Positions 6,676 through 59,561 of a DNA stretch of 64,000 nucleotides are shown here, one piece after another. A program made the translations under genes and the position numbers. The stretch spans positions 31,726-95,725 of the IMG/VR virus record IMGVR_UViG_3300006750_000004; one strand, given 5' to 3'. Below the pieces are notes generated by a model. The model had not been told where the DNA came from. It saw only the letters and a list, made by a program, of their open reading frames with translations, and did no database searches. Each line of letters opens with the position of its first letter. The first letter of the stretch is position 1. The stretch is from a virus.

Positions 6676-7308
6676 TTAAGCCTTCAAGTATTCATAGCCT
6701 GGCCAATCACGCACATCTTGTAATAAGATCTTTATTTTATTGTGCTCAATAGTCTCTCTAGTATATCCAACATTCCAATCAGGACCGATTTCGGGATCTG
6801 GATAAAGATTTAGGCCATCAATATCGACTTCAAGCATAGAACAATTCCCGCACATACAAGGATGGTGTGGACTACCCACAGCACTAGGCATATGAGGATC
6901 TATAAAGTGACCGAGAAGATTATTAACAGCTTGTTTATCTAAAAACAAATAAATGCGGCCTTTTTCATTGGGTCTCAGACCTTTGGTTTTGATAGATGAT
7001 AAATTTTCGGTTGGTGTGATATGGAATGCAAAACCGGTTGTTTGGAATGATTTAGTATCAGTAATCACAATTCGTAATGAATAATACTTCTTGGGTCCGC
7101 CAGAATGATATGGATTTGTTAACTCTTCCGATCCGATTAAATCCCAACCAATTTTGGTTAATTCTTGGCCCAATGCCTTCGTAGGGGGCGACTCAGAATT
7201 AACCCATATGTGGTCATCAAATGAACCCTTGATAAGAACTTTACCAAGATGTCTCTTGATAATTTCTAAAGCATCATTCTTAGATTCACAAATACTTCGT
7301 AGTTTCAT
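6676..7308 (-). CDS. ADP-ribosyltransferase-fold (Tpt1/KptA/DarT-like) protein with MKLxxIxE leader
   Basis: FHITPTENLSSIKTKGL...IYLF...LEVD...YTRETI follows the HxT-x6-I-x3-GL ART pattern; N-term MKLRSICE. Confidence 0.6.
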   Translation of the reverse strand: MKLRSICESKNDALEIIKRHLGKVLIKGSFDDHIWVNSESPPTKALGQELTKIGWDLIGSEELTNPYHSGGPKKYYSLRIVITDTKSFQTTGFAFHITPTENLSSIKTKGLRPNEKGRIYLFLDKQAVNNLLGHFIDPHMPSAVGSPHHPCMCGNCSMLEVDIDGLNLYPDPEIGPDWNVGYTRETIEHNKIKILLQDVRDWPGYEYLKA

Positions 7309-7311
7309 ATT

Positions 7312-21465: not shown

Positions 21466-21891
21466 TCAATATGCGATTTCCTGGAATCCCTGCCATTGTT
21501 GCCAGCTAATAACATTCCAATTATCGCCATAATTGATTAGCCAAGATACACCATATGTGTCAGTTACCCAAATCACAAATAGATCGTTAGTGAAATTTGG
21601 ATCGCGTCCTGGAGTTATAACACGTCCAACTGGGAGGGTGGCGAAGTAACTGGGTACGACTGGAACGTCCTGATCCAACTCACCAAATCGACGACCATCA
21701 GGAAGTCCTTCTAGGATCCCATGTTTGTCGACAATATTGATCACGCCATTATTCTCTATTGCTTTGATACCCTCTTGATGGAAATAAGCAGCTATTTGTT
21801 CGGCTTCTTGTCGATTAGAACCATCATCGAATTGGTCGTTGTCTTCGAGACCGTCGTAGTCGGATGATTCGGTGATATATTTAAGTTTCAT
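21466..21891 (-). CDS. GLED-tag family protein, 1 module, MKLKYITE leader
   Basis: MKLKYITE-SSDYDGLEDNDQF followed by unique cargo. Confidence 0.8.
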   Translation of the reverse strand: MKLKYITESSDYDGLEDNDQFDDGSNRQEAEQIAAYFHQEGIKAIENNGVINIVDKHGILEGLPDGRRFGELDQDVPVVPSYFATLPVGRVITPGRDPNFTNDLFVIWVTDTYGVSWLINYGDNWNVISWQQWQGFQEIAY

Positions 21892-22697
21892 TAGTACTCG
21901 GCTGCACTGAAGATGTCTAATATTGCTTGGATGTCTTCTTCTTTGAGTTCTGGGCCGTTCCAGTCGTACCCAGTTACTTCGTCACCCTGAATGGCCAGCC
22001 AGCCCACGTCAAGGCGGTCGTAGTAGAGAGTTAATCTACCTATGAATGGTTTGAAAGTTGGGTCAGGACTTCCTGCTTCTTGAGTAGCCAATAATTCAGC
22101 TTTTCTGGCTGGGTCTATATCCACGGGCTCGGGGTCTGCCGCATCACCGCCAGCTAGGGCATCGCCAGCTACGCGCGCGCGAATATTATCCACCATTGTG
22201 GTGCCGGGTTGTCCGGCTACTTGTATTTCAATAATCCAGGATCGTGATCCTTCTTCATTCTGGTCTTCTGGAACTGATGTTACATCTATTTGAACCCACC
22301 TGTCCATCATGTCGACAAGATGGAGACCCTCTTCACCGTGTGGGTCGTAGAATCTGTCGTTGTCTTCGAGACCGTCGTAGTCGGATGATTCGGTGAGCTT
22401 CGGACGCTTACGGAGATCCGAAGGGAACGCTGATTTTATACATTTTTTACATTGTCCAGATGACCCGAAACTCGGCAGTTCGCCACAAAATCCACAAAAC
22501 AGATAATCACATTCAGTACAAGAAGCAAGGGATCGTTCATAACCACTCACATCACAATAATCACAATTTTCCATTGTATCTTGATCATCGTCATCTGGTT
22601 CCTCGATGAATTCGTCGGCGTCTTCGAGGCCGTCATAATCAGATTCGTCCGGATCTTCCGAAATCATTCTGGCTATTTTTTTAGGGTCAATTTTCAT
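21891..22697 (-). CDS. GLED-tag family polyprotein, 2 modules (Zn-finger plus unknown), MKIDPKKIARMISE leader
   Basis: Start re-assigned to ATG 22697 by identity with the starts at 25356 and 25825; tags at 22608-22640 and 22350-22382. Confidence 0.8.
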   Translation of the reverse strand: MKIDPKKIARMISEDPDESDYDGLEDADEFIEEPDDDDQDTMENCDYCDVSGYERSLASCTECDYLFCGFCGELPSFGSSGQCKKCIKSAFPSDLRKRPKLTESSDYDGLEDNDRFYDPHGEEGLHLVDMMDRWVQIDVTSVPEDQNEEGSRSWIIEIQVAGQPGTTMVDNIRARVAGDALAGGDAADPEPVDIDPARKAELLATQEAGSPDPTFKPFIGRLTLYYDRLDVGWLAIQGDEVTGYDWNGPELKEEDIQAILDIFSAAEY

Positions 22698-22734
22698 ATC
22701 CGTCTCGTCAGTAAGCTTCAATGTTCTTGGCGTA

Positions 22735-24228
22735 CTATCGCCCGTCATCTCGTCGTCGCCAATCGAGTCGCTCTGCCTCCTCACAATTCGGACATCGCTC
22801 GCAGAAGGGACCGTGGATACAAGAACAAGAGAGAGGTAAGGCCGTAGTGCACCATTGACAATTCCAAAAATCACTTTGTTCTTGTTTTTCTACACATACA
22901 TCGCACCACATTGTGTTGCAGGAGGCGCAATAAACACCGTGATTAATTATTGCAAGGGGGGAATCCCCCGTAGATTCATCTTCTACTGGTGTGCCACACG
23001 TCGTGCATGGTGCACTATACCCTTCCGCATCGCTAAACTCATCGGCATCTTCAAGCCCCGCATATTCGCCAGACTCTCTAATATTGCTCTCGCGGGCGAA
23101 GTCTTCATCAGCTATGCAGTCTTGGCAGATATCAAGCGGGGATATTCCCCGCCATCCTGCATGTGAAGTACAATCGTCACACATTGATTGATTGCATTTG
23201 TAGCAATGTGTGACACGATCCCCTTCTTGCCAGGCAGTTCCACACCAACAAAAAGAATTATCTTGAAATTCATCGGCATCTTCAAGCCCGGCATATTCAT
23301 TGGCATCTTCATTCACATTTTCAGGTCCAAGAGAACCATGTCCTTGGCAGTAGTCAGTCCGCTCCCCACAATCCGGACACGTCTCGCAGTATTCCGCATC
23401 GGGATCGCAAAATTCGTCGGCGTCCTCGAGTCCCTCGTATGATTCGTTTACGTTGCGTTTATTGGCGGAAGAGATCCATTGTTGACGATTTGAGCGTCTA
23501 AAGAATCCTAATGGCCCTTCCCGTCCGTTGAATTCTTCCACATCCTGGTCGTTGGCGACCAGAAGTGCGCCGAGGTTCTGAATGAATTCTTCACTGTCCA
23601 AGTACTCTTTACATGATCGACAATATTGATCGTCCTGCTCTAGATCGTTAGTTCCACACACGCCGCAAACATTTGGTTCGCCGAATTCGTCGGCGTCCTC
23701 GAGTCCGGCATAGTCGGATTCGGTAATATGCTTGAGTTTCATTGGAGACCGACGCGCCTCGGACAACTCGCCGTCGTTCCAGAGATCCATATCTGGCGGC
23801 ACAGTTTCCTTATAGTGAGCGAAAGCAATATCTTGGATGGCATCTCTTAGGATAGAGGGCTTTGATCCCAATTGGGGATTTTGGTTTTGGAACCATTGTT
23901 CATATTTGGGGTATTCGGCGAGAATAGCGTCTTTAATGCTATCTAGTTCTGAACACCAGCGACATTTGTCAAGGTCGTAGTCATTTCCGACAGCCCAAAT
24001 TGGTGGGCCTGTACGAACTGGCTTTTCGAATGCTTCCGATCTGACGAAGATTATTACACTGTCAATATCCCTACTTTCTTGTTCGTACATGGTGTGAGCA
24101 GTGAAGAGATATGGTCCTACTTTCACTGGGCCATAATTATCTTGTTGCCATTCAGCTACGTCGTCAGTGAATTCGTCGGCGTCTTCGAGGCCGTCGTAGT
24201 CGGATTCGGTGATGTGGCGAAGTTTCAT
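22735..24228 (-). CDS. GLED-tag family polyprotein, 5 modules (4 Cys-rich), MKLRHITE leader
   Basis: Tags at 24169-24201, 23683-23715, 23410-23442, 23266-23298 and 23035-23067; an internal second leader MKLKHITE starts at 23742. Confidence 0.85.
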   Translation of the reverse strand: MKLRHITESDYDGLEDADEFTDDVAEWQQDNYGPVKVGPYLFTAHTMYEQESRDIDSVIIFVRSEAFEKPVRTGPPIWAVGNDYDLDKCRWCSELDSIKDAILAEYPKYEQWFQNQNPQLGSKPSILRDAIQDIAFAHYKETVPPDMDLWNDGELSEARRSPMKLKHITESDYAGLEDADEFGEPNVCGVCGTNDLEQDDQYCRSCKEYLDSEEFIQNLGALLVANDQDVEEFNGREGPLGFFRRSNRQQWISSANKRNVNESYEGLEDADEFCDPDAEYCETCPDCGERTDYCQGHGSLGPENVNEDANEYAGLEDADEFQDNSFCWCGTAWQEGDRVTHCYKCNQSMCDDCTSHAGWRGISPLDICQDCIADEDFARESNIRESGEYAGLEDADEFSDAEGYSAPCTTCGTPVEDESTGDSPLAIINHGVYCASCNTMWCDVCVEKQEQSDFWNCQWCTTALPLSCSCIHGPFCERCPNCEEAERLDWRRRDDGR

Positions 24229-24577
24229 TGATGCTCCAGAATTTCATTGTATCTTCGCCCAGATGGTGCCGGTATTTAACGAGTGACGGTAGCCCAACTG
24301 CCGTCGACATAGTGGTGACGTTTACCACGAATGATTTCTGCTAATCTTGATCGGTTGGAGCATCGGTTCTTATGGTGTTCTTGTGGCTTCCTTCGGGGAG
24401 TCCGGGTCTCGACAAAGTCGGGTCACCTGCTTCCAACCACCTTACAGGACGTAAGGCTTAAAAGAAACACTGGGCCTATCTGATAATGATTATCGGCTGC
24501 CCGAGATTAAGATGACCGCAGGCTTGGTGAGAACATTGTTGGGGTTACCCAGTGTACCAGCAGACAGATTTGAGCGT

Positions 24578-24784
24578 CTAAAGAATCCTAATGGCCCTTG
24601 TGCAATTATTCAAGATAGTCCGAAGCTCAAGCGTAAAGTCTGTAAGCATTGGCAGTTGTAATATTTCATCAAGTAACTCGACGTCCTTGAGAATGCCGAA
24701 CCTGATAGAGCATTCGGACTCCCTGGCGGGAGTTGATGACGGCAAGGATATGGACCAGGGGTCGACCAGCACAATTCTCCCCAA
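24578..24784 (-). CDS. hypothetical protein or gene remnant
   Basis: 68-aa ORF whose 3' end lies in a 33-nt repeat also present at 23487-23519. Confidence 0.3.
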   Translation of the reverse strand: MGRIVLVDPWSISLPSSTPARESECSIRFGILKDVELLDEILQLPMLTDFTLELRTILNNCTRAIRIL

Positions 24785-24919
24785 ATCGATTTTAGTGTTG
24801 GAGCTTTCCTGAAATCTGAGAGCGGCAAGTCCGCTAACCCGCTTAATTTGTCAGAGACTAAATGAAAGTTTTTGGCGGTTAGGACGGGGGGAAACGATGT
24901 CTATCTATAATACTTTCAA

Positions 24920-25066
24920 ATGACTAAAATCCAGAAATTGGAAGCCCCTGACTTTCTAATAGCTCTAAAGCTCACACTATTAATATCAGACCACGCTGGG
25001 GCAATCGCTGACACGTTGTTTTTATTGGACAAAGCTGGGCAATGTGCAGTCTATCGAAGGGACTAG
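24920..25066 (+). CDS. possible small leaderless protein (48 aa)
   Basis: MTKIQKLEAPDFLIALKLTLLISDHAGAIADTLFLLDKAGQCAVYRRD, with TATAAT at 24906-24911. Confidence 0.25.
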   Translation: MTKIQKLEAPDFLIALKLTLLISDHAGAIADTLFLLDKAGQCAVYRRD

Positions 25067-25356
25067 CCATTATGATTCTGCTCGATCCTCGCCAAATCAT
25101 CCTTGAAGTACTGCTGGCAGGAATGGCAGACAATCAGTTGGCCAGATGGATCTTTTAGATTGAAATTGCTGATACAATCGCTGCAGAAGTATGCATTTCG
25201 GCATCCATCACAACGGAACAACATATGTATTCCGAGTCCGCATGCGTCACATGTTTCCTTATCAACGAACTTGTCATCGTCTTCGAGGCCGTCATAATCA
25301 GATTCGTCCGGATCTTCCGAAATCATTCTGGCTATTTTTTTAGGGTCAATTTTCAT
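25063..25356 (-). CDS. GLED-tag family protein, 1 Zn-finger module, MKIDPKK leader
   Basis: MKIDPKKIARMISEDPDESDYDGLEDDDKF followed by CDAC..CDGC..CSDC..CHSC. Confidence 0.8.
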   Translation of the reverse strand: MKIDPKKIARMISEDPDESDYDGLEDDDKFVDKETCDACGLGIHMLFRCDGCRNAYFCSDCISNFNLKDPSGQLIVCHSCQQYFKDDLARIEQNHNG

Positions 25357-25825
25357 GAATTATACGCCTATTTATCGGAGGTTCGCCGGGGAGCCAACCA
25401 TGATCGTCGGCATACCAAGCACGACCACCTGCCCCGTTTTTGGTCACAATGGCCCATTCATTTTCATTATCGATTTCTATTTCATAAGTATTATCGATCC
25501 CCCAATGTTCGTTTTTAGGATTATCTATTGTTGTTATATAACTATCTGGTTCTGACACCTCGTCTTCGTCATCTCCAGAAGGGAAATCAGCATCTATATA
25601 TAATACTCCAAGCTTACCATGGCCCGCTGATACATATCCAGCTTCAACATTATAATGATTGAGAAAGTCTGCAAAGTTACCATTTTCATCCCCAAACTCA
25701 TCGGCATCTTCAAGCCCCGCATATTCGTCATCTTGTTTGTTAGATATGTATTCATCGGAGCGATCACTAGGAATATTCGGATCTTCCGAAATCATTCTGG
25801 CTATTTTTTTAGGGTCAATTTTCAT
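25346..25825 (-). CDS. GLED-tag family protein, 1 acidic module, MKIDPKK leader
   Basis: MKIDPKKIARMISEDP...EYAGLEDADEF. Confidence 0.8.
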   Translation of the reverse strand: MKIDPKKIARMISEDPNIPSDRSDEYISNKQDDEYAGLEDADEFGDENGNFADFLNHYNVEAGYVSAGHGKLGVLYIDADFPSGDDEDEVSEPDSYITTIDNPKNEHWGIDNTYEIEIDNENEWAIVTKNGAGGRAWYADDHGWLPGEPPINRRIIHEN

Positions 25826-25914
25826 TTGCAAGCCTTATAATATAGAACTTTTTGATCACCAAGGGCCTGCTTCTCTAGACCATCTTTCCCAGGTACCCTC
25901 TTCTATTTCGTATT

Positions 25915-26418
25915 TCACACACGGTTTGTGCTGGCGGCAAGTTGTGCTGCGACGATTCGTGCTGCAATAATATTGGCAGCTACTGTGGGTTTGGTTCTGA
26001 GTGATGCTTGTGCTTGGGAGGTGAAATTAGCGACTATATTATCACCAATTTGTTGGAATTTATCGATTCCGGCTAGTCCATTATCAGCTCCGGCTGGAGA
26101 GCCATCCCGAAGTCGATTCCCGCCGATTCCATATGCTTGGCATGATTTAGCTAATTCATGTTCGATTAATTTTTCTAGTTTGATTGTCATTTCTTCTGGT
26201 GATTTGTTGATTATCCATTCGCGTAGTGGTCGGTCTTCGATACAATCGGTGCATACTTCTTCTGGTTCATGTTGCCGATGGGAGTATCGCCATCGTATTA
26301 TATCTGCTGCATTAGATCCTATTCCGCAATCGACACATCCATCCGAGAATTGGTCATCGTCCTCGAGACCATAGTAGTCGGATTCTTGGTCGTTTTCGAT
26401 TATGTGTCGTAGTTTCAT
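25915..26418 (-). CDS. GLED-tag family protein, Zn-ribbon module, MKLRHIIE leader
   Basis: MKLRHIIE-NDQESDYYGLEDDDQF followed by CVDC...CTDC. Confidence 0.8.
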   Translation of the reverse strand: MKLRHIIENDQESDYYGLEDDDQFSDGCVDCGIGSNAADIIRWRYSHRQHEPEEVCTDCIEDRPLREWIINKSPEEMTIKLEKLIEHELAKSCQAYGIGGNRLRDGSPAGADNGLAGIDKFQQIGDNIVANFTSQAQASLRTKPTVAANIIAARIVAAQLAASTNRV

Positions 26419-26458
26419 ATTCTAATTTTGGCGGGATGTAGATAAAAGATATGATGAA

Positions 26459-28274: not shown

Positions 28275-29693
28275 ATGGCATCACTTATTGTCTATCTTGC
28301 GGATACCAAGTATATTGGTCGTACGTTGGCTGAAATAGCTGACAAAACACCACCGTACTTGCTTGAAGACTTAATCATCTGCAATGACACCGGACAAGAA
28401 TACGAAAATGATCGTGCTCTAGTGATCAATTCAGATAGGATTGGTCGATCTAAATGCTGGAACGAGGCTGCCAAACAAGCTACGTCTGACGAATTGGTGT
28501 TCCTACGTGATACTACCAAACTGAGTAAGGACTGGTTGCAACCACTTATTTCGAGGGTGAAAGGATCTAACTCCTTGGTGAGTCCTAGAATTCACACTTT
28601 AAATACTGATTTCTGGAGTACCGAGAATGAGTCGTGGCGGCGATTTGGGTGGAGATGGGATCTGTCTTTATATAGTCGCCAAATGCTTCGGAATTCTGAA
28701 TCTCCGGCGGTATCTTCTAATTGTATTGCTGTGACAGCTGATTGGTTTGAGCATCTTGGTGGGTTTGATGAGGGGATGGTTGCTGGGGTTGGTGAGGATA
28801 TTGAGCTGTCGATTCGGTCTTGGTTATTCGATGGGAAGGTCGAGGTTGAGGATGATAGTTTGATTGCGGTTCGGTCTGAGATAGACAATAGTCGGCATAC
28901 GATTAACAATTTGGCGAGGATTGTTGAGATTTGGATGCCAAAATATTCCAGCCGGTTTTATTCTGCCAGGGATGTGAAGCCGAGTGAATTGGATACAGGT
29001 AAGTTGTCTAATCTGATGATGCTTCAAGATAGACAAATCCACAAGATTTCATGGTTTCTTGAGCGTTGTCAGCCAGAGCTTGGTGATGTATATGACTTGA
29101 GGGGGACGGCGTCTGGCAAGTCTGTGGCGGTTATTGGTCCTGGTGCTTCGGTGGATTTGATTGATCCGTCATTGATTTATCGTCATGATTTAATTATCTC
29201 TGTAGATTATATGGGGATGGCGTTTGAGTCTGATTATGTGGTTACGGATTTGTCGCATGTGGCGGTTGAGTTGAGGTCGCGGTATCGGGACAGGCAGTTT
29301 GTGTTGCCATTGGCTTTGGCGGATCGGACTTCGGCGGAGTTTATTGCTGCTGGTGAGGTGGTGGTTGATTGCTATCAGTTTGAGTTGTCTGGTTTGCGTG
29401 GTAGAGTGATTTCTGATTCTCCTCCATTTTGCAATTTTGAGCAGTCGTTGCATTCGGCCGTGAATTTTGCTTTGTTTTTGAACCCTAGGACAATTTCATT
29501 ATTCGGGTGTGATAATAAAATTGTGGGGGATAGGAGTCATTCGGCGAAGATAGAATATTATGATGATGGTAGGTTGTGGCCGGATTCTGATGCTACTCGG
29601 CGGAAGTTTGCGTATTCCGAGTTTGGTATCGGCCAGCTTGGGAACCTTGCTTATTCTTTGGGTATTCCACTAATCCGGATGAATCATACATAA
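28275..29693 (+). CDS. Two-domain glycosyltransferase: GT-A (ppGalNAc-T/GT2-like) plus DUF115/Maf-like domain
   Basis: WLQPL...VSPRI, FEHLGGFDEGM..GEDIELSIRSWL; C-term VAVIGPGAS...SAVNFALFL...ISLFGCD. Confidence 0.7.
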   Translation: MASLIVYLADTKYIGRTLAEIADKTPPYLLEDLIICNDTGQEYENDRALVINSDRIGRSKCWNEAAKQATSDELVFLRDTTKLSKDWLQPLISRVKGSNSLVSPRIHTLNTDFWSTENESWRRFGWRWDLSLYSRQMLRNSESPAVSSNCIAVTADWFEHLGGFDEGMVAGVGEDIELSIRSWLFDGKVEVEDDSLIAVRSEIDNSRHTINNLARIVEIWMPKYSSRFYSARDVKPSELDTGKLSNLMMLQDRQIHKISWFLERCQPELGDVYDLRGTASGKSVAVIGPGASVDLIDPSLIYRHDLIISVDYMGMAFESDYVVTDLSHVAVELRSRYRDRQFVLPLALADRTSAEFIAAGEVVVDCYQFELSGLRGRVISDSPPFCNFEQSLHSAVNFALFLNPRTISLFGCDNKIVGDRSHSAKIEYYDDGRLWPDSDATRRKFAYSEFGIGQLGNLAYSLGIPLIRMNHT

Positions 29694-29695
29694 CC

Positions 29696-30019
29696 ATGGT
29701 AGATATTGTAGTTTCAATCTTTTTGATGGGGACCTTGGTGTGTGAGATCGCTGTTGTGGTTTTGGCTTACCGGGTCGTGTCTAAGATTGGAAGTATTCCC
29801 GCCAGTACTTTGAGAGACATAGCAAATGCCTGGAGCGAACGACGAGTTGCTCCGGTCGATGAAGCATCAACTGGATATAACGAGAGCGAAAGCAGACAGC
29901 GAGCAGCCACAAAAGTCGAAGAAATCCCGCCAGAAATCTTCGCACCAAGTCTCAAAAAACCGCCAAGGCCCGAAGGTGGTTTCGGCTCTCGTGTCAGTAA
30001 AGATGATGGCGATCCATAA
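29696..30019 (+). CDS. single-pass membrane protein
   Basis: Hydrophobic N-terminus IVVSIFLMGTLVCEIAVVVLAY. Confidence 0.55.
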   Translation: MVDIVVSIFLMGTLVCEIAVVVLAYRVVSKIGSIPASTLRDIANAWSERRVAPVDEASTGYNESESRQRAATKVEEIPPEIFAPSLKKPPRPEGGFGSRVSKDDGDP

Positions 30020-30067
30020 TTTTTCCAAAAAGATAAGAGTCCAAACCCAAGAAGTAAAGGTAGTACA

Positions 30068-30319
30068 ATGCGAGACGAAACCGTTAGCCGAGATGCCGCA
30101 GCTAAAAGCGAGTGCTGTGGTGGAGCCGAGAGTCAAGAAACTCCCCGAGAGGAAGAAGGCTGTTGCGGCAGAAAAGCTTCCAACCAAGAAGCCGATTCTG
30201 GGTGTTGTGGAGATGACCCCACTCCTACCAAGCTCCAATCCAAAACTTCCACAGACACCACTCCCACCAAGCTCCAATCCAAAACTTCCACAGACACCAA
30301 GTCCAAGCCCGGTGGCTGA
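30068..30319 (+). CDS. small protein with three CCG motifs (metal-binding candidate)
   Basis: ECCGG, GCCGR and GCCGD in one frame; AAGG upstream; 39-nt tandem repeat at 30219-30299. Confidence 0.5.
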   Translation: MRDETVSRDAAAKSECCGGAESQETPREEEGCCGRKASNQEADSGCCGDDPTPTKLQSKTSTDTTPTKLQSKTSTDTKSKPGG

Positions 30320-30407
30320 CGCCCTTTCAAGCGATAGCCGAGTTTCGGCTAATCCGAACTATCAAGTATACAGGCTCGGTGATGTCTTCACCGGTAGGAG
30401 AATATTG

Positions 30408-31532
30408 ATGAAACAATTAGGGATTGATATCGGGACCAAAACTGTTGTCGTTGCCTATCGAGGTGATGACGGGGAAATTGGATATATCTCCGAAATCAAT
30501 GGATGGTGGCCATTCGAGCGAGCCACAAAGTTCATTGAGAAACTTCTGGCCGATCCGACTAAAGTCCGATCTGATGGTACGCAACGACCAGCTCGTTGGA
30601 TTAAGATGCCAGAAACCAATCAAATCGTCGTATTAGGTAAAGACGCGGAAGAATTTGCGTATGCTAAGAACGACACCCTACGCCGCCCTATGGCCGAGGG
30701 CGGTATCTCTGCAGACGAAGAGGCGATGATTATTCTTGCTAGTATCGTCCAAGGTCTTATGGAAATGGCGGAGACTGAGTTAGGTGAATTTGGTGATTCA
30801 GTAAAGATTACTTATTGCACCACTGCCCCAGCCATCAATAAGAGATCCTCTAATGTAGAGTATCACGAGAGAGTCGTGAACTTGATCATCGAAGGATATG
30901 AAACCAAGGCCAAAGTTGAGCTGGTTGGTCCATACGACGATCATCAAGGTGCTATAAAAGAATCGCACGCTATCGTCCTGGATATGGACGATCAACACGG
31001 CAATGAAGGTACTGGCATTGGCATCTCGTGGGGGGCTGGTACCGTCACAGTCAGTTACGTGAAATGGGGAGAGGAAATCTATTCGTTCTGTTGGGTTGGT
31101 GCTGGTGACTGGATTGATAATGAAGTGGCTAAACGGCATGGGTACGAGCCTGATGTTATGAGTATAATGAAAAAGGCTAAGGAAACACCTACTACCGTTG
31201 CCAAGCGGAAAGAGACAGTTGACCTAACCCCAGGAATAGAACCAGAAGATCGCGTTGGCCTAGATATTGTGCTACATTATGACGTGCTCATCGCCAAAGT
31301 CATTGAAGGTGTGGTAGCCGGATTTGTAGAGAATGAAGACAGAGCCCGTATTGATGGTGCTGTCAATATTTATATGGCTGGTGGTACTAGCTCCCCACAA
31401 GGATTCGTGGAACGTGTGGCTGCCAAGTTTGACGAGAAAGATCTACCGTTCGAAATCGGTCAGATTTTCAAATCTGATAAGCCTCTCTATTGTGTGGCTA
31501 CTGGTTGTCTCAAGGCAGCTGAAATGTTCTAA
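30408..31532 (+). CDS. Actin-like ATPase (MreB/MamK/ParM superfamily)
   Basis: Phosphate-1 LGIDIGT, RRPM..G, phosphate-2 GISWGAGT, adenosine AGGTS, VATG; AGGAG RBS before ATG 30408. Confidence 0.85.
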   Translation: MKQLGIDIGTKTVVVAYRGDDGEIGYISEINGWWPFERATKFIEKLLADPTKVRSDGTQRPARWIKMPETNQIVVLGKDAEEFAYAKNDTLRRPMAEGGISADEEAMIILASIVQGLMEMAETELGEFGDSVKITYCTTAPAINKRSSNVEYHERVVNLIIEGYETKAKVELVGPYDDHQGAIKESHAIVLDMDDQHGNEGTGIGISWGAGTVTVSYVKWGEEIYSFCWVGAGDWIDNEVAKRHGYEPDVMSIMKKAKETPTTVAKRKETVDLTPGIEPEDRVGLDIVLHYDVLIAKVIEGVVAGFVENEDRARIDGAVNIYMAGGTSSPQGFVERVAAKFDEKDLPFEIGQIFKSDKPLYCVATGCLKAAEMF

Positions 31533-31556: not shown

Positions 31557-32753
31557 ATGTTTACAGATGAAGGCGAACCTCTCTGTACCGCCCCTTTCAC
31601 CAGCTTCCTTGTAGACGTCAACAAAGGTGTGAGGCCATGCTGTGTCTGGGAAGGACCATATCTAGGAAATCTCAAAGACTCCGGTATTCGTGATATAATT
31701 AACGGAGCCGAATGGGTCAAACTCCGGCGACAAATGATGATGGGTCTCTGGCCCGACAGTTGCTTAGAATGTCGTCATCGTGAAGAAAAGACCGGATGGA
31801 GCGTCAGGAAAGAATTCCTAAAAGGAGGAATTTTCCATAGCGACAATTGGAAAGAGATAACCTATATAGAATTCAGTGATTCTAATGTCTGCAATCTCGC
31901 TTGTATGCATTGTTCCGCCGGATTCAGCAATAGCTGGATACAACAAGAGAAAATTTTCCAAGACATATTACCCGATCGACAAAGCCCAGAAGACAACACT
32001 AGATATAGAACCCATGAAGTCCATGCACCAGATGAATCAGTAATAAACGATATTGTGTCCAAAGTAGAGCTTGGTTATCTTGAACAAATCATGATCAAGG
32101 GCGGTGAGCCGATGCTCAACAGTGATGTGGCATTACTTCTAGAGCAATTGGACGCGGCCGGTATCCTAGCACTGATTAAGGTCAACATGGTTACCAATGG
32201 GACACGCCCACATTCAACTCTCACCGACAGAATTTATAACTTGTTAACTAAAGCTCGCGAAGTGCACTTCGACGTGAGTGTTGATGGGGTTGGCGACGTC
32301 CAGGAGTATATTCGGCATGGTAAAGGATCAGATATTGCCACCATCGAATCGTTTATCCGGCGATTTTCTATGATCCCACAGGCCAGGTTCTCACTGTTGA
32401 CGTCTATTATGGCTTATAATATCTTCAATCTGCCCGCTATTGTTGATTGGTGGTCAACATTACCGTTTCAGAAATCATTACATCATCATGGACAATTTAG
32501 GCTTATGGTGGTGAACCCTGCATACCTATCTGTCCAATGTCTTGCAGACAAGACTAGAGCTGAATTGGTGGAGAGATATGAACCTTTTAGTGACACTTAT
32601 AAAAGTGTCGTGCAGAGTCTGAAGGGTGACTGCTTGGGTGAGGGACCTCGAGAGAAGCTCAGGAAGTTCACCAGCATGTTGGACGAGCATCGTGGTACCA
32701 ACCTAGAAGCTGTGGTACCGGAGCTAGCGGAAGATCTTAAATTACGTCCTTAA
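31557..32753 (+). CDS. Radical SAM protein with N-terminal SPASM/twitch-like domain
   Basis: CTAPF...PCC...CLEC followed by CNLACMHC, KGGEP, VTNGT, SVDG. Confidence 0.85.
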   Translation: MFTDEGEPLCTAPFTSFLVDVNKGVRPCCVWEGPYLGNLKDSGIRDIINGAEWVKLRRQMMMGLWPDSCLECRHREEKTGWSVRKEFLKGGIFHSDNWKEITYIEFSDSNVCNLACMHCSAGFSNSWIQQEKIFQDILPDRQSPEDNTRYRTHEVHAPDESVINDIVSKVELGYLEQIMIKGGEPMLNSDVALLLEQLDAAGILALIKVNMVTNGTRPHSTLTDRIYNLLTKAREVHFDVSVDGVGDVQEYIRHGKGSDIATIESFIRRFSMIPQARFSLLTSIMAYNIFNLPAIVDWWSTLPFQKSLHHHGQFRLMVVNPAYLSVQCLADKTRAELVERYEPFSDTYKSVVQSLKGDCLGEGPREKLRKFTSMLDEHRGTNLEAVVPELAEDLKLRP

Positions 32754-34715: not shown

Positions 34716-35686
34716 ATATTGATTACTCTTTCTGTTTTAGCGTGGAATGGTAGCTTGGTCGGGTTGGTGTAAATGTAGTCTCTGAATACTGGTCCAACAA
34801 ACATGGTGTGATCAAACAGGGCTTTTTGCTCATCGTGAACCGCAGCAACATCGCTATCAAGATGTCGTGCAAATTTTGGCCAGTCATACTGCGGGAAGTC
34901 CATGGCGTTGGGTGTATACTTCAGGCATACGTAATCGCCGGTGGATGTTTTAGCGATTTTGTTCAGGAACCTTAAGAATGTTATTGAGGTTTTGTCTTTA
35001 TGTTGGTGTATGAATTCCTGGAGGTTGTTGGCTCTTCTTTCTGCTAGATAGCCTCTCTCATGGATCTTGATTGATCTGTTGGTGTTGTGGAGTCTGGCTT
35101 CGTAGGGGGTGTGGTTTTTGGCATAGCGGAATCCGTATTCAACTACTTTCCTCCAGAATAACCAGTCCTCGTGATAGTCCTTATTGTCGGGGTGGTCTTT
35201 GAATGGTTCGCTGAGTTCGATGGCTATGCGGGAGACCACACACCCAACATGCAGGAAGTTGGTTTGCCATAATCTTTTTGGTTGGATGTCGTTTGGAAAT
35301 TTAACTAGGGTGGAGGCATGCCCGAAGTACTGGAGGTCGGAGAAGGCGATGTCTACGCCGTGTTGGGTGATGGTAGATGTGGCGTCGGCTAAGTAGTTTG
35401 GTGGCAACCTGTCGTCGGCGTCTAGGAAGCACACTAATTCTGAATTGGTTGCTTTAAACCCAGCCTCTCTAGCATAGAGAGGGTTTTTGAATTCAGTACG
35501 AAGATATCTGTAGCCAAATTGTTTGACGAGGTCTTCGCATCTTTTGCAAGACCCATCATCTACGACGATGACGTCCTTTGGTTTGAGGATTTGGGCTTGG
35601 ATGCTAGATAAGGCATTGGGCAAATAATGTAAATAATTGTGGTTCGTCACAATAACTGCGACAGTTTTTCGGTCTTGTAGAAACAT
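34712..35686 (-). CDS. GT2 glycosyltransferase
   Basis: VAVIVTNHNY...VVDDGS...FLDADD...EDW. Confidence 0.85.
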   Translation of the reverse strand: MFLQDRKTVAVIVTNHNYLHYLPNALSSIQAQILKPKDVIVVDDGSCKRCEDLVKQFGYRYLRTEFKNPLYAREAGFKATNSELVCFLDADDRLPPNYLADATSTITQHGVDIAFSDLQYFGHASTLVKFPNDIQPKRLWQTNFLHVGCVVSRIAIELSEPFKDHPDNKDYHEDWLFWRKVVEYGFRYAKNHTPYEARLHNTNRSIKIHERGYLAERRANNLQEFIHQHKDKTSITFLRFLNKIAKTSTGDYVCLKYTPNAMDFPQYDWPKFARHLDSDVAAVHDEQKALFDHTMFVGPVFRDYIYTNPTKLPFHAKTERVINI

Positions 35687-36365
35687 GATTACCATCAAGT
35701 ATGCTAGTGGTGAAACTGTTGCTTTTCAGCTAGAGGGCGATATTTGGTACCTGCGTATTGGGCCTGGTATTCCGTGTCTTTTTGATGAGCGGCTTCGTAA
35801 GCAGGTGGTTCCAAATTTAGATAGCTGGTTTCAATCTAAGACTGGACAACGTTATTCATATCGTACTGTGTGTGATATGGCCGTAGCATTTGCCACTGGC
35901 CTGAATTGCTCTTATCGTGCGGAGGATGTTGTCCGTGTTTGTACCCAAGCGTCTCGTTCTACTGTTGCTCAGGTATTCAGAACAGAATTAGTAAATGATT
36001 ATCGTCGGGCTTACTGGATTGAAATTTTAGATCCCTTGCGACTACCGGAACAAGCACAATCTATTAGGGAGAAGTTCGACTTTCTGCGTAAGAAATTGGG
36101 GGACGATGTCTTTTATAATTACCTGTGTCGTTTATGGAGAGCATGTAGTCTTCAAAATCCGAATGAGACAGCTGTATTTGAACGACTCATTCAACGACTC
36201 GGGCGACAGGCAGCGGACCCGAAGTACCCAGACACAGAAGAATTGGACAAGAAACTTTGTGAGCGTGTGGTCGGTGGGATATTGAGAAGAGACCTACCAC
36301 AATACCGCAATATTCCAGATGATATAATGAGGAACGTTGATGGTATTCAAGCCGGAAGAATATAA
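35685..36365 (+). CDS. hypothetical protein
   Basis: 226-aa ORF upstream of dnaE part 1. Confidence 0.6.
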   Translation: MITIKYASGETVAFQLEGDIWYLRIGPGIPCLFDERLRKQVVPNLDSWFQSKTGQRYSYRTVCDMAVAFATGLNCSYRAEDVVRVCTQASRSTVAQVFRTELVNDYRRAYWIEILDPLRLPEQAQSIREKFDFLRKKLGDDVFYNYLCRLWRACSLQNPNETAVFERLIQRLGRQAADPKYPDTEELDKKLCERVVGGILRRDLPQYRNIPDDIMRNVDGIQAGRI

Positions 36366-37767
36366 AGGACCGAAGGAATTCGTCCACCTACATAATCATA
36401 CTGTATTTTCCGCTCTAGATGGAGTGGCTACACCGGAGCAGTATGCTGAGCAGTGTGTAGAACGCGGTTATCCGGCGATGAGTGCTACTGAGCATGGACA
36501 TATGGCATCAGTGCCCGATATGTATCTAGCATTCAAGAAAGCAGGGGTGAAGTATATTCCAGGGTGCGAGATATACTTCAACGATTTTGAACCTGCTAGA
36601 CAAGACTTAGTGGCTAAAGGTATCAAAATCCGGTCACAGGATTGGCGTAAACAAAATCCGGAGATGGCCGCAAGATTATTTCGTAATCGTCATCTCACTG
36701 TTCTTTGCAAGAATAAGACCGGATTCCACAACCTAGTTAAATTGACGACTCAAGCATATGAGACTGGCTTATATGGCATGGGTCGAATGCAATTCAACAG
36801 GGTCTGGTTTGATAAGCTTTGCGAATACAAAGAAGGGCTTATAATCTTATCTGGGTGTCTCAATGGTCCGGTGTGTCATGAACTCCGATACAAAGAATTA
36901 ACTGATCGTGAAGGCAATGTGATTAGTGAGAGACCAAACGCAGACCGAATACGCGACGCTGTGGATTGGGTGAAGAGATTCAAGGCGGAGTTTGGAGAAG
37001 ATTATTATATAGAACTTCAGATGCCAGGTATCCCTGAGGATGATAAAATCTTTAGACTCATGATATCGATTGCTGATCAATACAAAATACCGCTCGCACT
37101 GGCTAATGATTGTCACTATCTTCGTCGTAAAGACTTTATGCTACAGAAGATTATGATGGCTGTGGCTCAGGATACGACGGTGGATTCGCCAGATTTGTTT
37201 CATGTCAATAGTGACGAACAATTTATGAAAACTAGGGCTGAATTGTGGACGCAATTTAAGAATGGCGGTTACGACAAGGGATTGGATGATGGGGTGTTTG
37301 AGGCGATGTGTGATAATACTTTGATGATAGCTGATAAATGTGAGGCGTTTGCTGTCGACACTTCCCCAAAAATCCCGGAAATCCACAATGCTGATGATCA
37401 GTTGAGAAGGTTGGTGGCTGAGAGGTTACAGAGCAGTGGCTTGGTAAAGGAGGATAAGAAGTTCGTGATCGATGGTAAGGAGGTCACTTACGTTCAGCAG
37501 GCCAAGATTGAACTTAATCGATTTATTGACAAAGGGTTTTCCAGTTACTTTATTATCACTAAGGATTTGGTGGGATATGGTAAGTCACGGGGGTGGCCGT
37601 TTAGTCCTCGTGGTAGTGCTGGTGGTTCTTTGGTGTGTTTCCTTTTAGGTATTCATACTTTGGACCCAATGCTGTGGGAATTGTCGTTTGATCGTTTTCT
37701 GTCTCCGAGTCGTGGTGGGTATATGTTGAATGTGAAGATGCCGGAGCCGATTGACCGAAGCACGTGA
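36340..37767 (+). CDS. dnaE: DNA polymerase III alpha (DnaE), part 1: PHP domain plus start of the palm
   Basis: HLHNHTVFSALDG, TEHG, GCEIY, HLTVL, SGCLNG, NDCHY, RGSAGGSLVCFLLGI..DP, FDRFL; ends before PDID. Confidence 0.92.
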   Translation: MVFKPEEYKGPKEFVHLHNHTVFSALDGVATPEQYAEQCVERGYPAMSATEHGHMASVPDMYLAFKKAGVKYIPGCEIYFNDFEPARQDLVAKGIKIRSQDWRKQNPEMAARLFRNRHLTVLCKNKTGFHNLVKLTTQAYETGLYGMGRMQFNRVWFDKLCEYKEGLIILSGCLNGPVCHELRYKELTDREGNVISERPNADRIRDAVDWVKRFKAEFGEDYYIELQMPGIPEDDKIFRLMISIADQYKIPLALANDCHYLRRKDFMLQKIMMAVAQDTTVDSPDLFHVNSDEQFMKTRAELWTQFKNGGYDKGLDDGVFEAMCDNTLMIADKCEAFAVDTSPKIPEIHNADDQLRRLVAERLQSSGLVKEDKKFVIDGKEVTYVQQAKIELNRFIDKGFSSYFIITKDLVGYGKSRGWPFSPRGSAGGSLVCFLLGIHTLDPMLWELSFDRFLSPSRGGYMLNVKMPEPIDRST

Positions 37768-37820: not shown

Positions 37821-38282
37821 TTATTTTATACGCTGCTTGTCAAAGCTGACAGACCCTCCCTCTACCCTCGGAGTGAACTCCCACACCTTGGTGATTTTGT
37901 CTAGTGGCACAGGCCCCTTAGCCCAATACTCACCCTTATGGACTTGTGAATCATCCTTATAATCATCAACCAAATGGCGAGAAACCTCCGCAACGATGCC
38001 CGTGTAAGGCATTTCACGCGGAGACTCCGAACGCCATTCAAAATCGATATGTTCAGGCGTCTCGATAGGAAGTTCCGTGGCGTAATACACCGCATCGTCG
38101 TAGTCGCCGAAGCAGGAAATGTTCTCCTGGCTCTCATAAGGAGCAAACCGGCAATCAGACAGGATATATCCACGATTAATGGCTTCTGCCCACTCTACGT
38201 TGCTCATGCCGCGATACACGAATTTAACGGAAGCCGGTTCTTGCTTATCGCCCAGTGATTCGTAAATTTGTCTAAGTCTCAT
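37821..38282 (-). CDS. ADP-ribosyltransferase-fold (R-S-E type) protein with MKLRQIYE leader
   Basis: FVYRGMS..EW....RG, ISCF....AVYYA, GEYWAKGPVP...I. Confidence 0.5.
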   Translation of the reverse strand: MRLRQIYESLGDKQEPASVKFVYRGMSNVEWAEAINRGYILSDCRFAPYESQENISCFGDYDDAVYYATELPIETPEHIDFEWRSESPREMPYTGIVAEVSRHLVDDYKDDSQVHKGEYWAKGPVPLDKITKVWEFTPRVEGGSVSFDKQRIK

Positions 38283-38551
38283 AATTTATTTTTGAGTAAT
38301 AAGCCAAAACCCCTGCGAACAGAGGTTCTGGCTTTATAGCTTAACCTCTATTGATAAAATCAATAAGAAAATTAGGCCACCAACCTTGTCACACCCCAGC
38401 AAAATAAATAGCGGGGGCGATCGACCCTAAAAATAGGTAATGAGCGATGATGGCGAGAAGGCGGGTATTATCTGGAATGAGAGAGTAGATACTTCATGCA
38501 CTGCCGTTACTGGATTTGATGAAACAGTACCGTCCAAATGGTTGAAATATA

Positions 38552-39572: not shown

Positions 39573-40052
39573 ATGTCAATTAGGGACCAGCTACAAAAAA
39601 TCGCCGATACGGGGTCAAAACGCACCGAAGGTATCGATTACGCGAGTATTGCATTACTCTTAGTGAAACCGCCATCTCGTGTTCTTTCTTCACATCGCAT
39701 CAAAAACAAGGCAGAACATACTAAACTTTTGGAAATTGCTTTTAAAAAGCAATGTCTCATTTATTTCGCATCTGTTGCACATCGTGATGGGAAATACTAC
39801 GCTGCCCAGCCATGGATTCTTGATTTGGATTCTATTAATGCTCTGTGTGAGATAGATGATACACCTAAGGTTGAAATTAAGAAAGAAGAGAGAGGCAAGA
39901 AGGCAGAAGATATTGCTCCACTAACCCTTTATTGCCCATATTGCGACCACCCAATAAACAGTACACCAGGCCGCACTCTCCACATAAAGAGTAGACATCC
40001 TGATAAACTCGAGGATTACAAAAAATGGCTGAAGTCACATGGGAAGAAATAA
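39573..40052 (+). CDS. C2H2 zinc-finger protein
   Basis: CPYC-x11-HIKSRH. Confidence 0.6.
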   Translation: MSIRDQLQKIADTGSKRTEGIDYASIALLLVKPPSRVLSSHRIKNKAEHTKLLEIAFKKQCLIYFASVAHRDGKYYAAQPWILDLDSINALCEIDDTPKVEIKKEERGKKAEDIAPLTLYCPYCDHPINSTPGRTLHIKSRHPDKLEDYKKWLKSHGKK

Positions 40053-50551: not shown

Positions 50552-50748
50552 TGGATAGTATTATGACGCCAAGGACGTGCTTAGGCCCTGGATGTGGGAA
50601 AACTTTCTTATCAGATAGGCCAAAATCACAACACCGGATTTGCCCGGACTGCGATAAAAAACGACCCAAGACATATGGGAAGACTTCCAGCAGTGGTAAA
50701 GGCAAGAGAGCTGGAAAATCTGTTAATTCTGGCGTTGACTCTGGTTAG
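50551..50748 (+). CDS. small basic zinc-finger protein
   Basis: CLGPGC...RICPDC; TGATG coupling to the upstream gene. Confidence 0.55.
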   Translation: MDSIMTPRTCLGPGCGKTFLSDRPKSQHRICPDCDKKRPKTYGKTSSSGKGKRAGKSVNSGVDSG

Positions 50749-50987
50749 AGTCTGATCGTCCCTGGTCTTGCTTCCATACCGAGGTATTGGCGGTGTCGTG
50801 GTTTTTGCGGCACCCCGGTTGGGAGATAAGTGCCACTAGATACCCTGGTACCAGAATCCATCCCTCTAGATGAATCATAGAGTTGGTTGGATGTGACGAA
50901 TGGACGTGCGGCGAACGGCCCAGACCTGAGTAGTTGCCCCCGGACTTGCTGCATGATCAGGTTTTCGTTGATTTGCCGCAATTTCAC
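50745..50987 (-). CDS. small protein with MKLRQINE leader
   Basis: Shares the MKLxxIxE leader. Confidence 0.6.
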   Translation of the reverse strand: MKLRQINENLIMQQVRGQLLRSGPFAARPFVTSNQLYDSSRGMDSGTRVSSGTYLPTGVPQKPRHRQYLGMEARPGTIRL

Positions 50988-51020: not shown

Positions 51021-52013
51021 TTAATAATACCAATCAGGTGGTTCTTTTGGTGGGAAACCTTGAGGAGGTTCCCAGAGGCGGCCCCATTGCGGAGGCCAGC
51101 GCCACCTATTATCTTTGTACGCTCTGAGGTAGACCTTATCTTTAATCATTTCGGTCAACTTCTCATACGACGTCTGATGATAGAATTGGACTCCTAACCA
51201 GGTGGCAAGCTCCTGGATGAAGCTGAGGTCGAAATCATCTATGATGTTCTCACCGAACATCACATCCCACCGTTGGGGACTATTGACGTCAATCAGGAGT
51301 GTGACTTGGTCGCATGCTATGGTGAATTGGTAAACCGATCTCCATTCTATCTCGTAGTCCTTCTCGAATTCGTCCGCGTCCTCGAGACCGTCGTAATCAG
51401 ACGATTCCGTTAAGTTCCCAGTTTTGGCACAATTTGGGCAAGTGTAGACGTCGTAGCATCGAGTGGCAGCTAGTACTCGCTGACCCTGGAGAACATTGTG
51501 ATTTTGGCGAAAATATTGCCCTGGTTCTGGGCGGTAGTACCAGCCGGTCGATGTGATTCCTTCCCGTTGGCTGTCGTATTGGTGAATGTCTTTTTGGGTC
51601 GGCATCGCACAACTGAAGTGGACAGCGATATCGCATCTGTCACATACCCAAGGGCCGACGCTGTCTTCTGGGACATCCATTCTGCAGCCATAGCACGGAC
51701 CTAGAGAAGGTTCGCCGAACTCATCGGCATCTTCGAGTCCGTCGTAATCAGATTCAGATACTGGTTTTGCCCAATGTCTACTGCCCCAGCAATTTGGACA
51801 CCATCTTTGTGCGTTAAAAGAATATGATTCGCGATCCTCGTGACGTCCCGCACATTGAGCACAGATATCTAGTGGTACTTCTTTGCCACACCCACCAATA
51901 CACGGTATATTGGTTTGTTCATAGAGCTCGCCGCAATAATTACAGTTAGATGCGAACTCATCGGCATCTTCGAGTCCGTCGTAATCAGATTCAGAGATCT
52001 GGAAGAGTTTCAT
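51021..52013 (-). CDS. GLED-tag family polyprotein, 3 modules (Zn finger, PHD-like finger, unknown), MKLFQISE leader
   Basis: DYDGLEDADEF at 51954-51986, 51717-51749 and 51366-51398. Confidence 0.85.
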   Translation of the reverse strand: MKLFQISESDYDGLEDADEFASNCNYCGELYEQTNIPCIGGCGKEVPLDICAQCAGRHEDRESYSFNAQRWCPNCWGSRHWAKPVSESDYDGLEDADEFGEPSLGPCYGCRMDVPEDSVGPWVCDRCDIAVHFSCAMPTQKDIHQYDSQREGITSTGWYYRPEPGQYFRQNHNVLQGQRVLAATRCYDVYTCPNCAKTGNLTESSDYDGLEDADEFEKDYEIEWRSVYQFTIACDQVTLLIDVNSPQRWDVMFGENIIDDFDLSFIQELATWLGVQFYHQTSYEKLTEMIKDKVYLRAYKDNRWRWPPQWGRLWEPPQGFPPKEPPDWYY

Positions 52014-55919: not shown

Positions 55920-56360
55920 ATGGCGACACCAAAGAGCGAGAAGCTGCAGAAAGAGGAAAAAGCCGGGAGAAGTCCAGAAGTCCCGGAAGGATTGGCTACT
56001 GTTATGGCAGAGCAAGATGGCCCTATCCAAGTCCGCGAAGTTCAGTGTCTGAATGATTTCGTGGCTATCCTCCAATTTGAAGTGGATATGGGGAGTATTG
56101 TCGTACCAGACTCGGACTCTAAGTATAAGTTCGAAGGTTTGGTAGTGGGTGTAGGACCTGGTGTTTCTGATAATGCTGGTGGCCGGTTACCACCGCAATT
56201 ATCAGTAGGTGATGTGGTAATGTTCGGAAAGAACATCGTCGCCCAAATCGCCTCCGACAGCCCTCCCTACGCAGGACACAAAATCGTACTCGTTTCTGAA
56301 CGAAATGTTCTCTGCAAATTGCATAAGCAGTTGCCGTGGGAGCGTTATAAAGGTGACTGA
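55920..56360 (+). CDS. groES: GroES-like co-chaperonin
   Basis: LNDFV...GSIVVPD...EGLVVGVGPG...LSVGDVVMF...LVSERNVL. Confidence 0.85.
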   Translation: MATPKSEKLQKEEKAGRSPEVPEGLATVMAEQDGPIQVREVQCLNDFVAILQFEVDMGSIVVPDSDSKYKFEGLVVGVGPGVSDNAGGRLPPQLSVGDVVMFGKNIVAQIASDSPPYAGHKIVLVSERNVLCKLHKQLPWERYKGD

Positions 56361-57432: not shown

Positions 57433-57470
57433 CACGGCCTTGTTTGCCTGTGTTGATAGGTGTCGAGGCT

Positions 57471-59518: not shown

Positions 59519-59538
59519 TGCTAATACTATTGACCACA

Positions 59539-59561
59539 GCGGGGGTTGGCCCCGCGTTTTT
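59539..59561 (+). terminator. probable intrinsic terminator
   Basis: GCGGGG-GTTGG-CCCCGC followed by GTTTTT. Confidence 0.55.

Follow-up and report, generated by a model that had tools for sequence, protein, structure and literature searches.

The tag locus and its genes

The DNA examined here is a stretch of 64,000 nucleotides (nt), hereafter the window, which corresponds to bases 31726-95725 of the 95,725-base viral contig IMGVR_UViG_3300006750_000004. We focus on a group of genes whose products share a short acidic peptide, Y-x-G-L-E-D-x-D-x-F (the acidic tag). A six-frame scan of the window with the pattern Y.GLED.D.F gave exactly 14 matches, all on the minus strand, and zero further copies were found in the rest of the contig. 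Seven genes carry the tag, with 1, 2, 5, 1, 1, 1 and 3 copies per gene. The preliminary description of this DNA had listed the same 14 copies, with these coordinates and counts per gene, and had suggested the scan of the wider genome that returned none outside the window.

The acidic tag is a real feature and, as a peptide family, an undescribed one. No Pfam or PHROG model spans it, it occurs in none of the cultured-phage records, and the string GLEDADEF is absent from 8.4 million papers and preprints, in agreement with the earlier remark that no described system with such a tag was known. An EF-hand or DxDxDG calcium loop was considered as its identity and ruled out, since the residue before the tyrosine and the residue between Y and G are highly variable (D/A/E/Y/S/V/W).

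Two further sequence elements accompany the tag. The first is an [ILV]-x-E tripeptide, which ends 1-6 residues before the tag tyrosine in 13 of the 14 window copies, as had been claimed; the tag at 25694-25723 is the sole one without it. The repeated unit consists of [ILV]-x-E, a serine, aspartate or asparagine with 0-4 further residues, and then Y-x-G-L-E-D-x-D-x-F. The second element is an N-terminal leader, MKLxxIxE or M[KR]LxxIxE, found on at least eight genes of the contig; another leader, MKIDPKKIARMISE, is found on three genes. The MKLxxIxE leader comprises 8 residues, with I at position 6 and E at position 8, and leader and tag together comprise 20 residues. This I-x-E leader precedes otherwise unrelated proteins, both tagged and untagged.

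Gene starts were corrected at two places. The open reading frame (ORF) of 327 amino acids (aa) at 21891-22874 almost certainly begins at the ATG at 22697, which gives it MKIDPKKIARMISE, the leader of two neighbouring genes (starts 25356 and 25825). The ORF at 25346-25831, with a TTG at 25831, begins at the ATG at 25825. After these corrections the genes overlap by a few bases at most.

The genes are listed below; G001 is a syntenic sister phage (an IMG/VR contig of 146.8 kb, 41% complete), in which 81 of 122 proteins match with a median identity of 70%.

21466..21891, minus strand: gene of 141 aa; leader MKLKYITE; tag 21829-21858; cysteine-free cargo
21891..22697, minus strand: gene of 268 aa; leader MKIDPKKIARMISE; tags 22608-22637 and 22350-22379; 8-Cys cross-brace finger, then a cysteine-free C-terminal domain
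22735..24228, minus strand: gene of 497 aa with five modules; tags 24169-24198, 23683-23712, 23410-23439, 23266-23295 and 23035-23064
25063..25356, minus strand: gene of 97 aa; leader MKIDPKKIARMISE; tag 25267-25296; MYND-like cross-brace zinc finger; no G001 counterpart
25346..25825, minus strand: gene of 159 aa; leader MKIDPKKIARMISE; tag 25694-25723; cysteine-free cargo; no G001 counterpart
25915..26418, minus strand: gene of 167 aa; leader MKLRHIIE; tag 26347-26376 (YYGLEDDDQF); CxxC ribbon-like cargo
51021..52013, minus strand: gene of 330 aa with three modules; tags 51954-51983, 51717-51746 and 51366-51395; finger A, PHD-like finger B and a C-terminal domain without clear fold match
6676..7308, minus strand: leader-only gene of 210 aa; MKLRSICE; no acidic tag; no Pfam family; absent from G001 though the flanks are conserved
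37821..38282, minus strand: leader-only gene of 153 aa; MRLRQIYE; no acidic tag; no Pfam family; absent from G001
50745..50987, minus strand: small leader-only ORF adjoining the three-tag gene; MKLRQINE; no acidic tag; from an internal Met, 68% identical to G001 29171-29380

Sequence comparison shows this locus to be hypervariable, in contrast to an identity of about 70% between the phages elsewhere. Each of the seven tag genes is either missing from G001 or just 36-61% identical there, mostly over partial length, with flanks at 65-87%. For example, the orthologue of the 167-aa gene (G001 57428-57856) retains 49% identity over 59% of the length, and the genes on either side 73-80%. Two of the three leader-only genes follow the same pattern, being absent from G001 or much less conserved there than the genes beside them.

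Traces of rearrangement are also found within the locus. Module two of the 497-aa protein retains a complete MKLKHITE leader (ATG at 23742), the mark of two genes fused; this protein also occurs in other assemblies (P0005, and L047 at 98% identity). The leader-plus-tag DNA of the 268-aa gene is 94% identical to the copy at 25262-25356. The tag array further includes an ORF-free gap of 834 nt (24229-25062), and an exact 33-nt direct repeat links a site in this gap (24567-24599) with the coding region of the 497-aa polyprotein (23487-23519).

Conservation of the peptide and exchange of modules

The acidic tag is under peptide-level selection. This follows from 36 copies collected from three phage contigs: the window's own, G001 and G002, the last (146.1 kb) so distant that 5-6 proteins are detectably shared, yet with 11 tags of near-identical sequence. 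Seven residues (Y, G, L, E, D, D and F) are invariant in all copies, whereas every synonymous codon is used for Gly (four codons), Tyr, Leu, Glu, Asp and Phe. The relaxed regular expression behind this count permitted [YFW], [LIVM], [ED] and [FYW], yet all 36 copies show Y, L, E, D and F at these positions; the invariance of G and both D has to be read with the caveat that the expression itself demanded them. Pairwise DNA identity of the copies ranges from 60% to 94%. A degenerate DNA pattern of the tag gave 11 and 11 matches in the relatives versus 0 for the reversed control. The preliminary description had argued for selection on the peptide from synonymous differences among the window copies. 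These differences are real (Gly with all four codons; Leu, Glu, Asp, Tyr and Phe with each of theirs), and the conservation as peptide extends to related phages.

A profile search with the unit among 1.84 billion representative proteins found 63 at E < 1e-3, 20 of them at E < 1e-10. All 63 are encoded on uncultured phage-like contigs, and the largest number of tags is nine, in a protein of 877 aa. Lineage variants of the tag occur (YDDLEDVDEF, YEGLPDEDEF) and are uniform within a protein. Two leaders recur across these 63 proteins: MKLxxIxE and the longer M-x-I-x-P-x-Q-I-A-x-L-I-T-E-D-P-D-E.

Some other observations concern the wider family. Exact Y[AD]GLEDADEF is found, with no nearby [ILV]xE, in three GC-richer (52-56%) metagenome contigs (L050 3942-4514, L056 1942-3030 and L061 371-1243). 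Among these tag proteins, which have no assigned function, one carries its tag after a minimal start MTPPSE and two share a domain. The best-conserved protein between two distant tag lineages is a helical family of 575-662 aa (G001 35013-36740 and G002 56052-58040, 44% identical). Most of its members have a conserved N-terminus MRLxDIAE, and the G002 member carries an inserted IAQMITEDPD form that links both leader types. Fold searches with the 575-aa family gave weak matches throughout; the one to a 'structural protein' of phage PA5oct (E 4.7e-5, TM score 0.22) was set aside as too weak to use.

Between the tags lie the cargos, mostly binuclear cross-brace zinc fingers. The earlier statement that cargos are mostly CxxC-rich holds for nine of the 14; the other five are not CxxC-rich. 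Their assignment as zinc fingers is borne out by matches to the Pfam MYND, IBR, FYVE, Prok-RING_2 and zf-HIT families among the 63 database proteins, although these are weak and limited to 1-3 of the 63 proteins per family. In the window, the 97-aa protein is the one above the MYND cut-off (zf-MYND, E 7.5e-5, 23.1 bits, cut-off 22.7). Fold comparison adds a weak PHD-like resemblance for the middle finger of the 330-aa protein model (Z 3.2-3.8). The C-terminal domain of the same protein gave no clear match in the fold search (best Z 5.0), and an ESM Atlas search with the cargo of the 141-aa protein returned nothing usable. Tag proteins are strongly acidic, with isoelectric points (pI) of 4.1-4.9 against a median of 6.3 for the predicted proteome.

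By alignment, the tags mark module boundaries, and modules are gained, lost or reordered exactly there. In orthologues of the 330-aa protein, whole tag-plus-finger modules are variously present, absent or arranged in another order. Furthermore, the cargo of the free-standing gene at 21466-21891 is homologous (41% identity) to the last module of a G001 polyprotein (59199-60536), so that one module is free here and fused there. Both results bear out the modular tag-plus-cargo design proposed earlier. In an AlphaFold2 (AF2) model of the 330-aa protein, itself weak since its alignment has seven rows, all three tags fall in segments with a predicted local distance difference test (pLDDT) score of 25-39, and the domains between them reach 57-84.

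Could the tag serve this exchange and nothing else? As a passive acidic linker or recombination cassette, it would supply DNA homology for shuffling and a flexible spacer, with no specific partner. The location of module exchange at the tags would suit this idea, as would the DNA identity of 60-94% among tag copies, some leader-plus-tag stretches being nearly identical. However, a spacer needs no invariant Y, G, L, E, D, D and F, and these seven residues persist in 36 copies despite the use of all synonymous codons. The peptide is also kept in phages with almost no other detectable shared protein. We therefore consider a passive role very improbable.

The combination of a constant element with variable Cys-rich cores is also known from leaders of ribosomally made, post-translationally modified peptides (RiPPs). 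Here the unit would recruit a maturase such as the radical SAM/SPASM enzyme encoded at 31557-32753, 5 kb away. However, the cargos are 40-160 residues long with zinc-finger spacings and Pfam finger matches, unlike short core peptides, and a cysteine cluster is lacking in five of the 14. On the G002 contig, which bears tags, no radical SAM gene was found, and in G001 the syntenic place lacks a counterpart of the window's own. This makes a RiPP leader so improbable that its chance is close to negligible.

The source of the window is probably an uncultured marine jumbo phage. The contig is 26% complete (CheckV), from which a genome of about 350 kb is expected; complete relatives of 354 kb and 408 kb exist. 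Cultured phages gave no DNA match to the contig, and the replicative polymerase, a DnaE-type enzyme, shares no more than about 26% identity with that of any cultured phage. The polymerase gene (40025-44692, plus strand) is interrupted by an HNH/homing-endonuclease gene of 512 aa (41898-43436), which leaves ORFs of 657 aa and 419 aa. A 568-aa protein (29826-31532, plus strand; 74% identical in G001) matches the Pfam family Volactin, an archaeal actin family, with E 6.8e-35 and, on this match, may be a phage-encoded actin-like cytoskeletal protein. In the radical SAM protein (31557-32753, plus strand), the SPASM domain is N-terminal (residues 10-72) and the radical SAM core follows, an unusual order. 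Acidic proteins and the Volactin match had suggested a halophile or archaeal virus. This origin was rejected, as the median pI is 6.3 and strong acidity is confined to the tag proteins.

Most genes of the contig have Shine-Dalgarno-like sequences. Several MKL genes differ, in all three phages: they lack a Shine-Dalgarno sequence, and 4-6 nt ahead of their ATG is an A/T-rich heptamer, AAA[AT]ATA or a close variant of it. Sites are found at 26419-26432, 38283-38296 and 7309-7320 in the window, at 57417 and 129404 in G001, and at 30735, 62858 and 80918 in G002; forms include AAAATTA, AAAAATA and AAATATA, often with GAGT after them. In G002 the heptamer also lies 27 nt before the portal gene and 37 nt before the scaffold gene. 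It could be a shared T4-late-like promoter giving leaderless mRNAs, on what are thin statistics. Ten G002 genes, mostly behind or beside this motif, belong to no PHROG family. A scan of the tag locus for sigma-70 promoters and terminators gave results not above shuffles.

Evidence for a T4-type head and possible roles of the tag

The association of tag and [ILV]xE was quantified in 39 tags from four phage contigs. In 33 of them the tripeptide ends 1-6 residues before the tyrosine, compared with a background of 9-10% at random positions or ahead of other tyrosines. Composition-preserving shuffles gave a mean of 6.8 of 39, and 0 of 5000 reached 33.

A T4-type head is encoded by the tag-bearing relative G002. 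Its head block contains, in order, the large terminase (TerL), the portal, a 1019-aa protein, a Peptidase_S77 protease, a scaffold-like protein and a gp23-family capsid protein. The protease belongs to the family of T4 gp21 (67.8 bits, above the cut-off), and the capsid protein scores 267.8 bits. The latter aligns with T4 gp23 residues 6-42, which are part of the removed propeptide, and with residues 82-132; mature gp23 chains in the PDB comprise 456 of 521 residues, i.e. 65 are removed. In the short part of the G002 protein that is homologous to the cut region of gp23, the sole [ILV]xE is V-I-L-E/D at residue 94 (the slash marks the predicted cut), which makes a T4-like cutting rule plausible for this clade.

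The genes of interest also lie close to this block. Three tag genes and one leader gene of G002 are located within 5 kb of it. In the closest relatives of the protease (83% identical), a tag gene is found 7.8 kb upstream of the protease gene; in more distant ones, M[KR]LxxIxE genes are found a few kb downstream instead. In the complete relatives of 408 kb and 354 kb, the start MK[LF]xxIxE has 8 and 6 matches, versus 2 and 0 for the reversed control.

We tentatively favour, at somewhat less than an even chance, an extension of T4-style capsid loading and cutting to multi-module chains, to which an acidic address is added. We infer the packaging, the cutting and its position, the ejection, the partner and the targets. 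The leader with its [ILV]xE would be the clade's counterpart of the T4 capsid-targeting sequence (CTS) and gp21 cutting site. Tag proteins would be loaded into the prohead core, where the Peptidase_S77 head protease would cut every junction; fused and free-standing versions would then yield equal small products. These products would exit the capsid together with the DNA. Their zinc fingers, as protein-binding modules, are probably directed at host or defence proteins.

The acidic peptide would act as a second, lineage-specific address, for which there are two options. It might complete a propeptide of about 20 residues, which binds the assembly core and is then removed. Within the tag, G-L-E is invariant and A-D-E is present in most copies; both fit the G/A-x-E rule of phiKZ/SPN3US-type proteases, so that the whole segment of about 20 residues could be removable. 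In the cargos, [SAG]xE, among six motifs compared, is somewhat depleted (187 observed against 223 expected, z -2.8). Alternatively, the acidic peptide might stay on each mature module and dock to one shared partner.

The preliminary description had proposed a form of the second option, with the ejection machinery or a host protease or adaptor as the shared partner. In its fullest version, the tag would be retained as the new N-terminus after the [ILV]xE cut and would plug a changing zinc-finger library into one hub; a host protease or unfoldase would be a candidate for this hub, as would the machinery of ejection or replication. The outcome would be an injected arsenal of tag-and-target adaptors, in which the finger selects the victim and the tag its fate. 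We regard this specific version as distinctly unlikely.

Several lines of evidence favour T4-style loading and cutting. The 8-residue I-x-E leader on unrelated proteins resembles the T4 CTS, and the frequency of [ILV]xE before tags far exceeds its background of about 10%. G002 combines tags with a T4-type head block, the V-I-L-E/D site and nearby tag genes. In addition, modules shuffle at tags that lie in low-confidence linkers, the locus is hypervariable, and MK[LF]xxIxE recurs in complete relatives with a related protease. Lastly, short propeptides, multiple cuts and shared N-termini are documented in T4 and SPN3US (PMC5694885).

Other results weigh against this reading. The two complete relatives (408 kb and 354 kb) have a head protease 77-78% identical to that of G002 and no acidic tag, from which it follows that the head machinery does not need the tag. 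The analogy to the T4 protease gp21, drawn in the preliminary description, is plausible because G002 combines tags with an S77 protease and a gp23-type capsid protein bearing I-L-E/D. Since the leader is kept in the two complete relatives, we distinguish two layers, a leader that extends across the clade and an acidic tag specific to a lineage. No head protease was detected in the window's own contig (95.7 kb, 26% complete) or in G001, which is 41% complete. The former holds no head gene at all, and its tag genes sit amid replication and sugar-metabolism genes. Within cargos, [ILV]xE is undepleted (188 observed versus 179 expected); depletion had been sought as a sign of exposure to the protease. 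The cargos are acidic zinc fingers, whereas T4 internal proteins are basic, and the T4 CTS has no conserved peptide after its cut. Finally, a tag on every module exceeds what packaging alone needs.

In G001, two gp23-like pieces of 43 aa and 34 aa were detected, 65% identical to parts of the G002 capsid protein. They belong to ORFs 114262-114732 and 128469-129257 (L030, L031), which are separated by 14 kb that include radical SAM and other genes. These pieces could represent a broken-up or decoy gene for the capsid protein, or be left over from a large insertion.

In a rival reading, the tag, [ILV]xE included, would be a cytoplasmic docking motif for one host or phage hub, with multi-tag proteins as multivalent adaptors that are never packaged or cut. 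Tag genes of the window's phage lie outside head clusters, and complete relatives with a related head protease are tagless, as this rival would predict. Three invariant hydrophobic anchors (Tyr, Leu, Phe) in an acidic, predicted disordered stretch are typical of short linear motifs. Every module carries the tag, as expected if each needs it for its function. Furthermore, the tag is uniform per phage and differs by lineage (YDDLEDVDEF, YEGLPDEDEF), which fits co-evolution with one partner. A comparable design may be seen in the C-terminal tip of the single-stranded DNA-binding protein (SSB) and in clamp-binding peptides, where a short acidic run with a hydrophobic or Phe anchor links many proteins to one hub; these motifs differ from the tag in being C-terminal or in having another consensus. 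However, a docking role leaves unexplained why an 8-residue MKLxxIxE leader is kept ahead of the tag in free-standing genes, why untagged proteins throughout a clade with T4-type heads carry this leader, and why the residue pattern before the tag follows the T4 protease rule. No candidate hub was identified either. We consider this main rival of T4-style loading rather unlikely.

A further rival retains the cutting and dispenses with the capsid. The polyproteins would be matured in the cytoplasm by a host enzyme or a retropepsin-like domain, with cuts at or in the tags, much as polyproteins of RNA viruses are. The G001 polyprotein at 59199-60536 (L027/L028, L033) starts with such a domain (PF05618, E 3.7e-34), followed by three tagged modules, and the equivalence of fused and free module forms would be in line with maturation. 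PF05618, the sole enzyme-like cargo found in the tag family, is nevertheless present in just one of five records and absent from the window's own contig. A ClpP-type protease is encoded in none of the five, and the leader on single-module proteins would be left without explanation. Cytoplasmic maturation is therefore judged improbable. The lack of ClpP in these records also led us to discard a ClpP-type degron as the role of the tag. RimK, looked for in the five records as a glutamylation partner of the PF05618 domain, was not found.

Comparison with known systems

In T4, internal proteins (IPs) are loaded via an N-terminal CTS of 10 residues, in which residues 4 and 7 are targeting determinants and residues 8 and 10 determine processing (PMC9026906, PMC3012670). 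Among the diverse internal proteins of T-even phages, the CTS alone is conserved, and the proteins counter host restriction (PMC9026906, PMC3012670). T4 propeptides comprise 10-20 residues, while giant-phage propeptides have several cleavage sites; the diverged SPN3US paralogues gp53 and gp54 begin with the same 15 residues, which include AxE and SxE sites (PMC5694885).

The genes described here resemble those of T4 IPI, IPII, IPIII and Alt in that a short N-terminal I-x-E leader precedes unrelated proteins and that the loci vary strongly among related phages. With I at 6 and E at 8, the window leader fits the grammar of the T4 CTS. A gp21-type protease and a gp23-type capsid protein are likewise shared with T4, here in the tag-bearing relative G002. 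In contrast to the T4 proteins, an invariant acidic decapeptide follows the site, chains of several modules carry the unit at every joint, and the cargos are acidic fingers, not small basic proteins.

The jumbo phages phiKZ, 201phi2-1 and SPN3US also encode a gp21-related protease (gp175/gp245), which cuts after S/A/G-x-E, and GLE and ADE in the tag would fit this rule. However, propeptides in these phages mostly exceed 100 residues and are not a fixed decapeptide repeated within chains. Moreover, the polymerase of the clade considered here is of the DnaE type, and the stretches examined contain none of the phiKZ hallmark genes. Picornavirus and retrovirus polyproteins offer another parallel, with several units in one chain and a short repeated separating sequence; the G001 chain even starts with a retropepsin-like domain. 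They differ in that we are dealing with a DNA phage and accessory, hypervariable chains, for which the likeliest protease would be the capsid maturation enzyme in the prohead. As for the cargos, their matches to IBR, FYVE, MYND, zf-HIT and Prok-RING_2 models recall Prok-RING_2 and other prokaryotic RING/treble-clef fingers, but these matches are weak and few, and no ubiquitin-like partner genes were seen.

On these comparisons, the tag system would best be filed under the T4 theme of capsid targeting and processing, with the constant acidic tag after the cutting site as its distinctive part. If its proteins are indeed loaded and cut like T4 internal proteins, capsid targeting would reach beyond three small T-even proteins to a general plug-in system of jumbo phages, which delivers shuffled libraries of protein-binding modules. 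The acidic tag would then provide a new and very short handle, useful either to load foreign proteins into large capsids or to find the hub it binds. As candidates for countering defence or taking over the host, the zinc-finger cargos belong to a type seldom encountered in phages. Should the packaging reading fail, an invariant 10-residue peptide across nearly unrelated phages still points to a conserved, unknown interaction.

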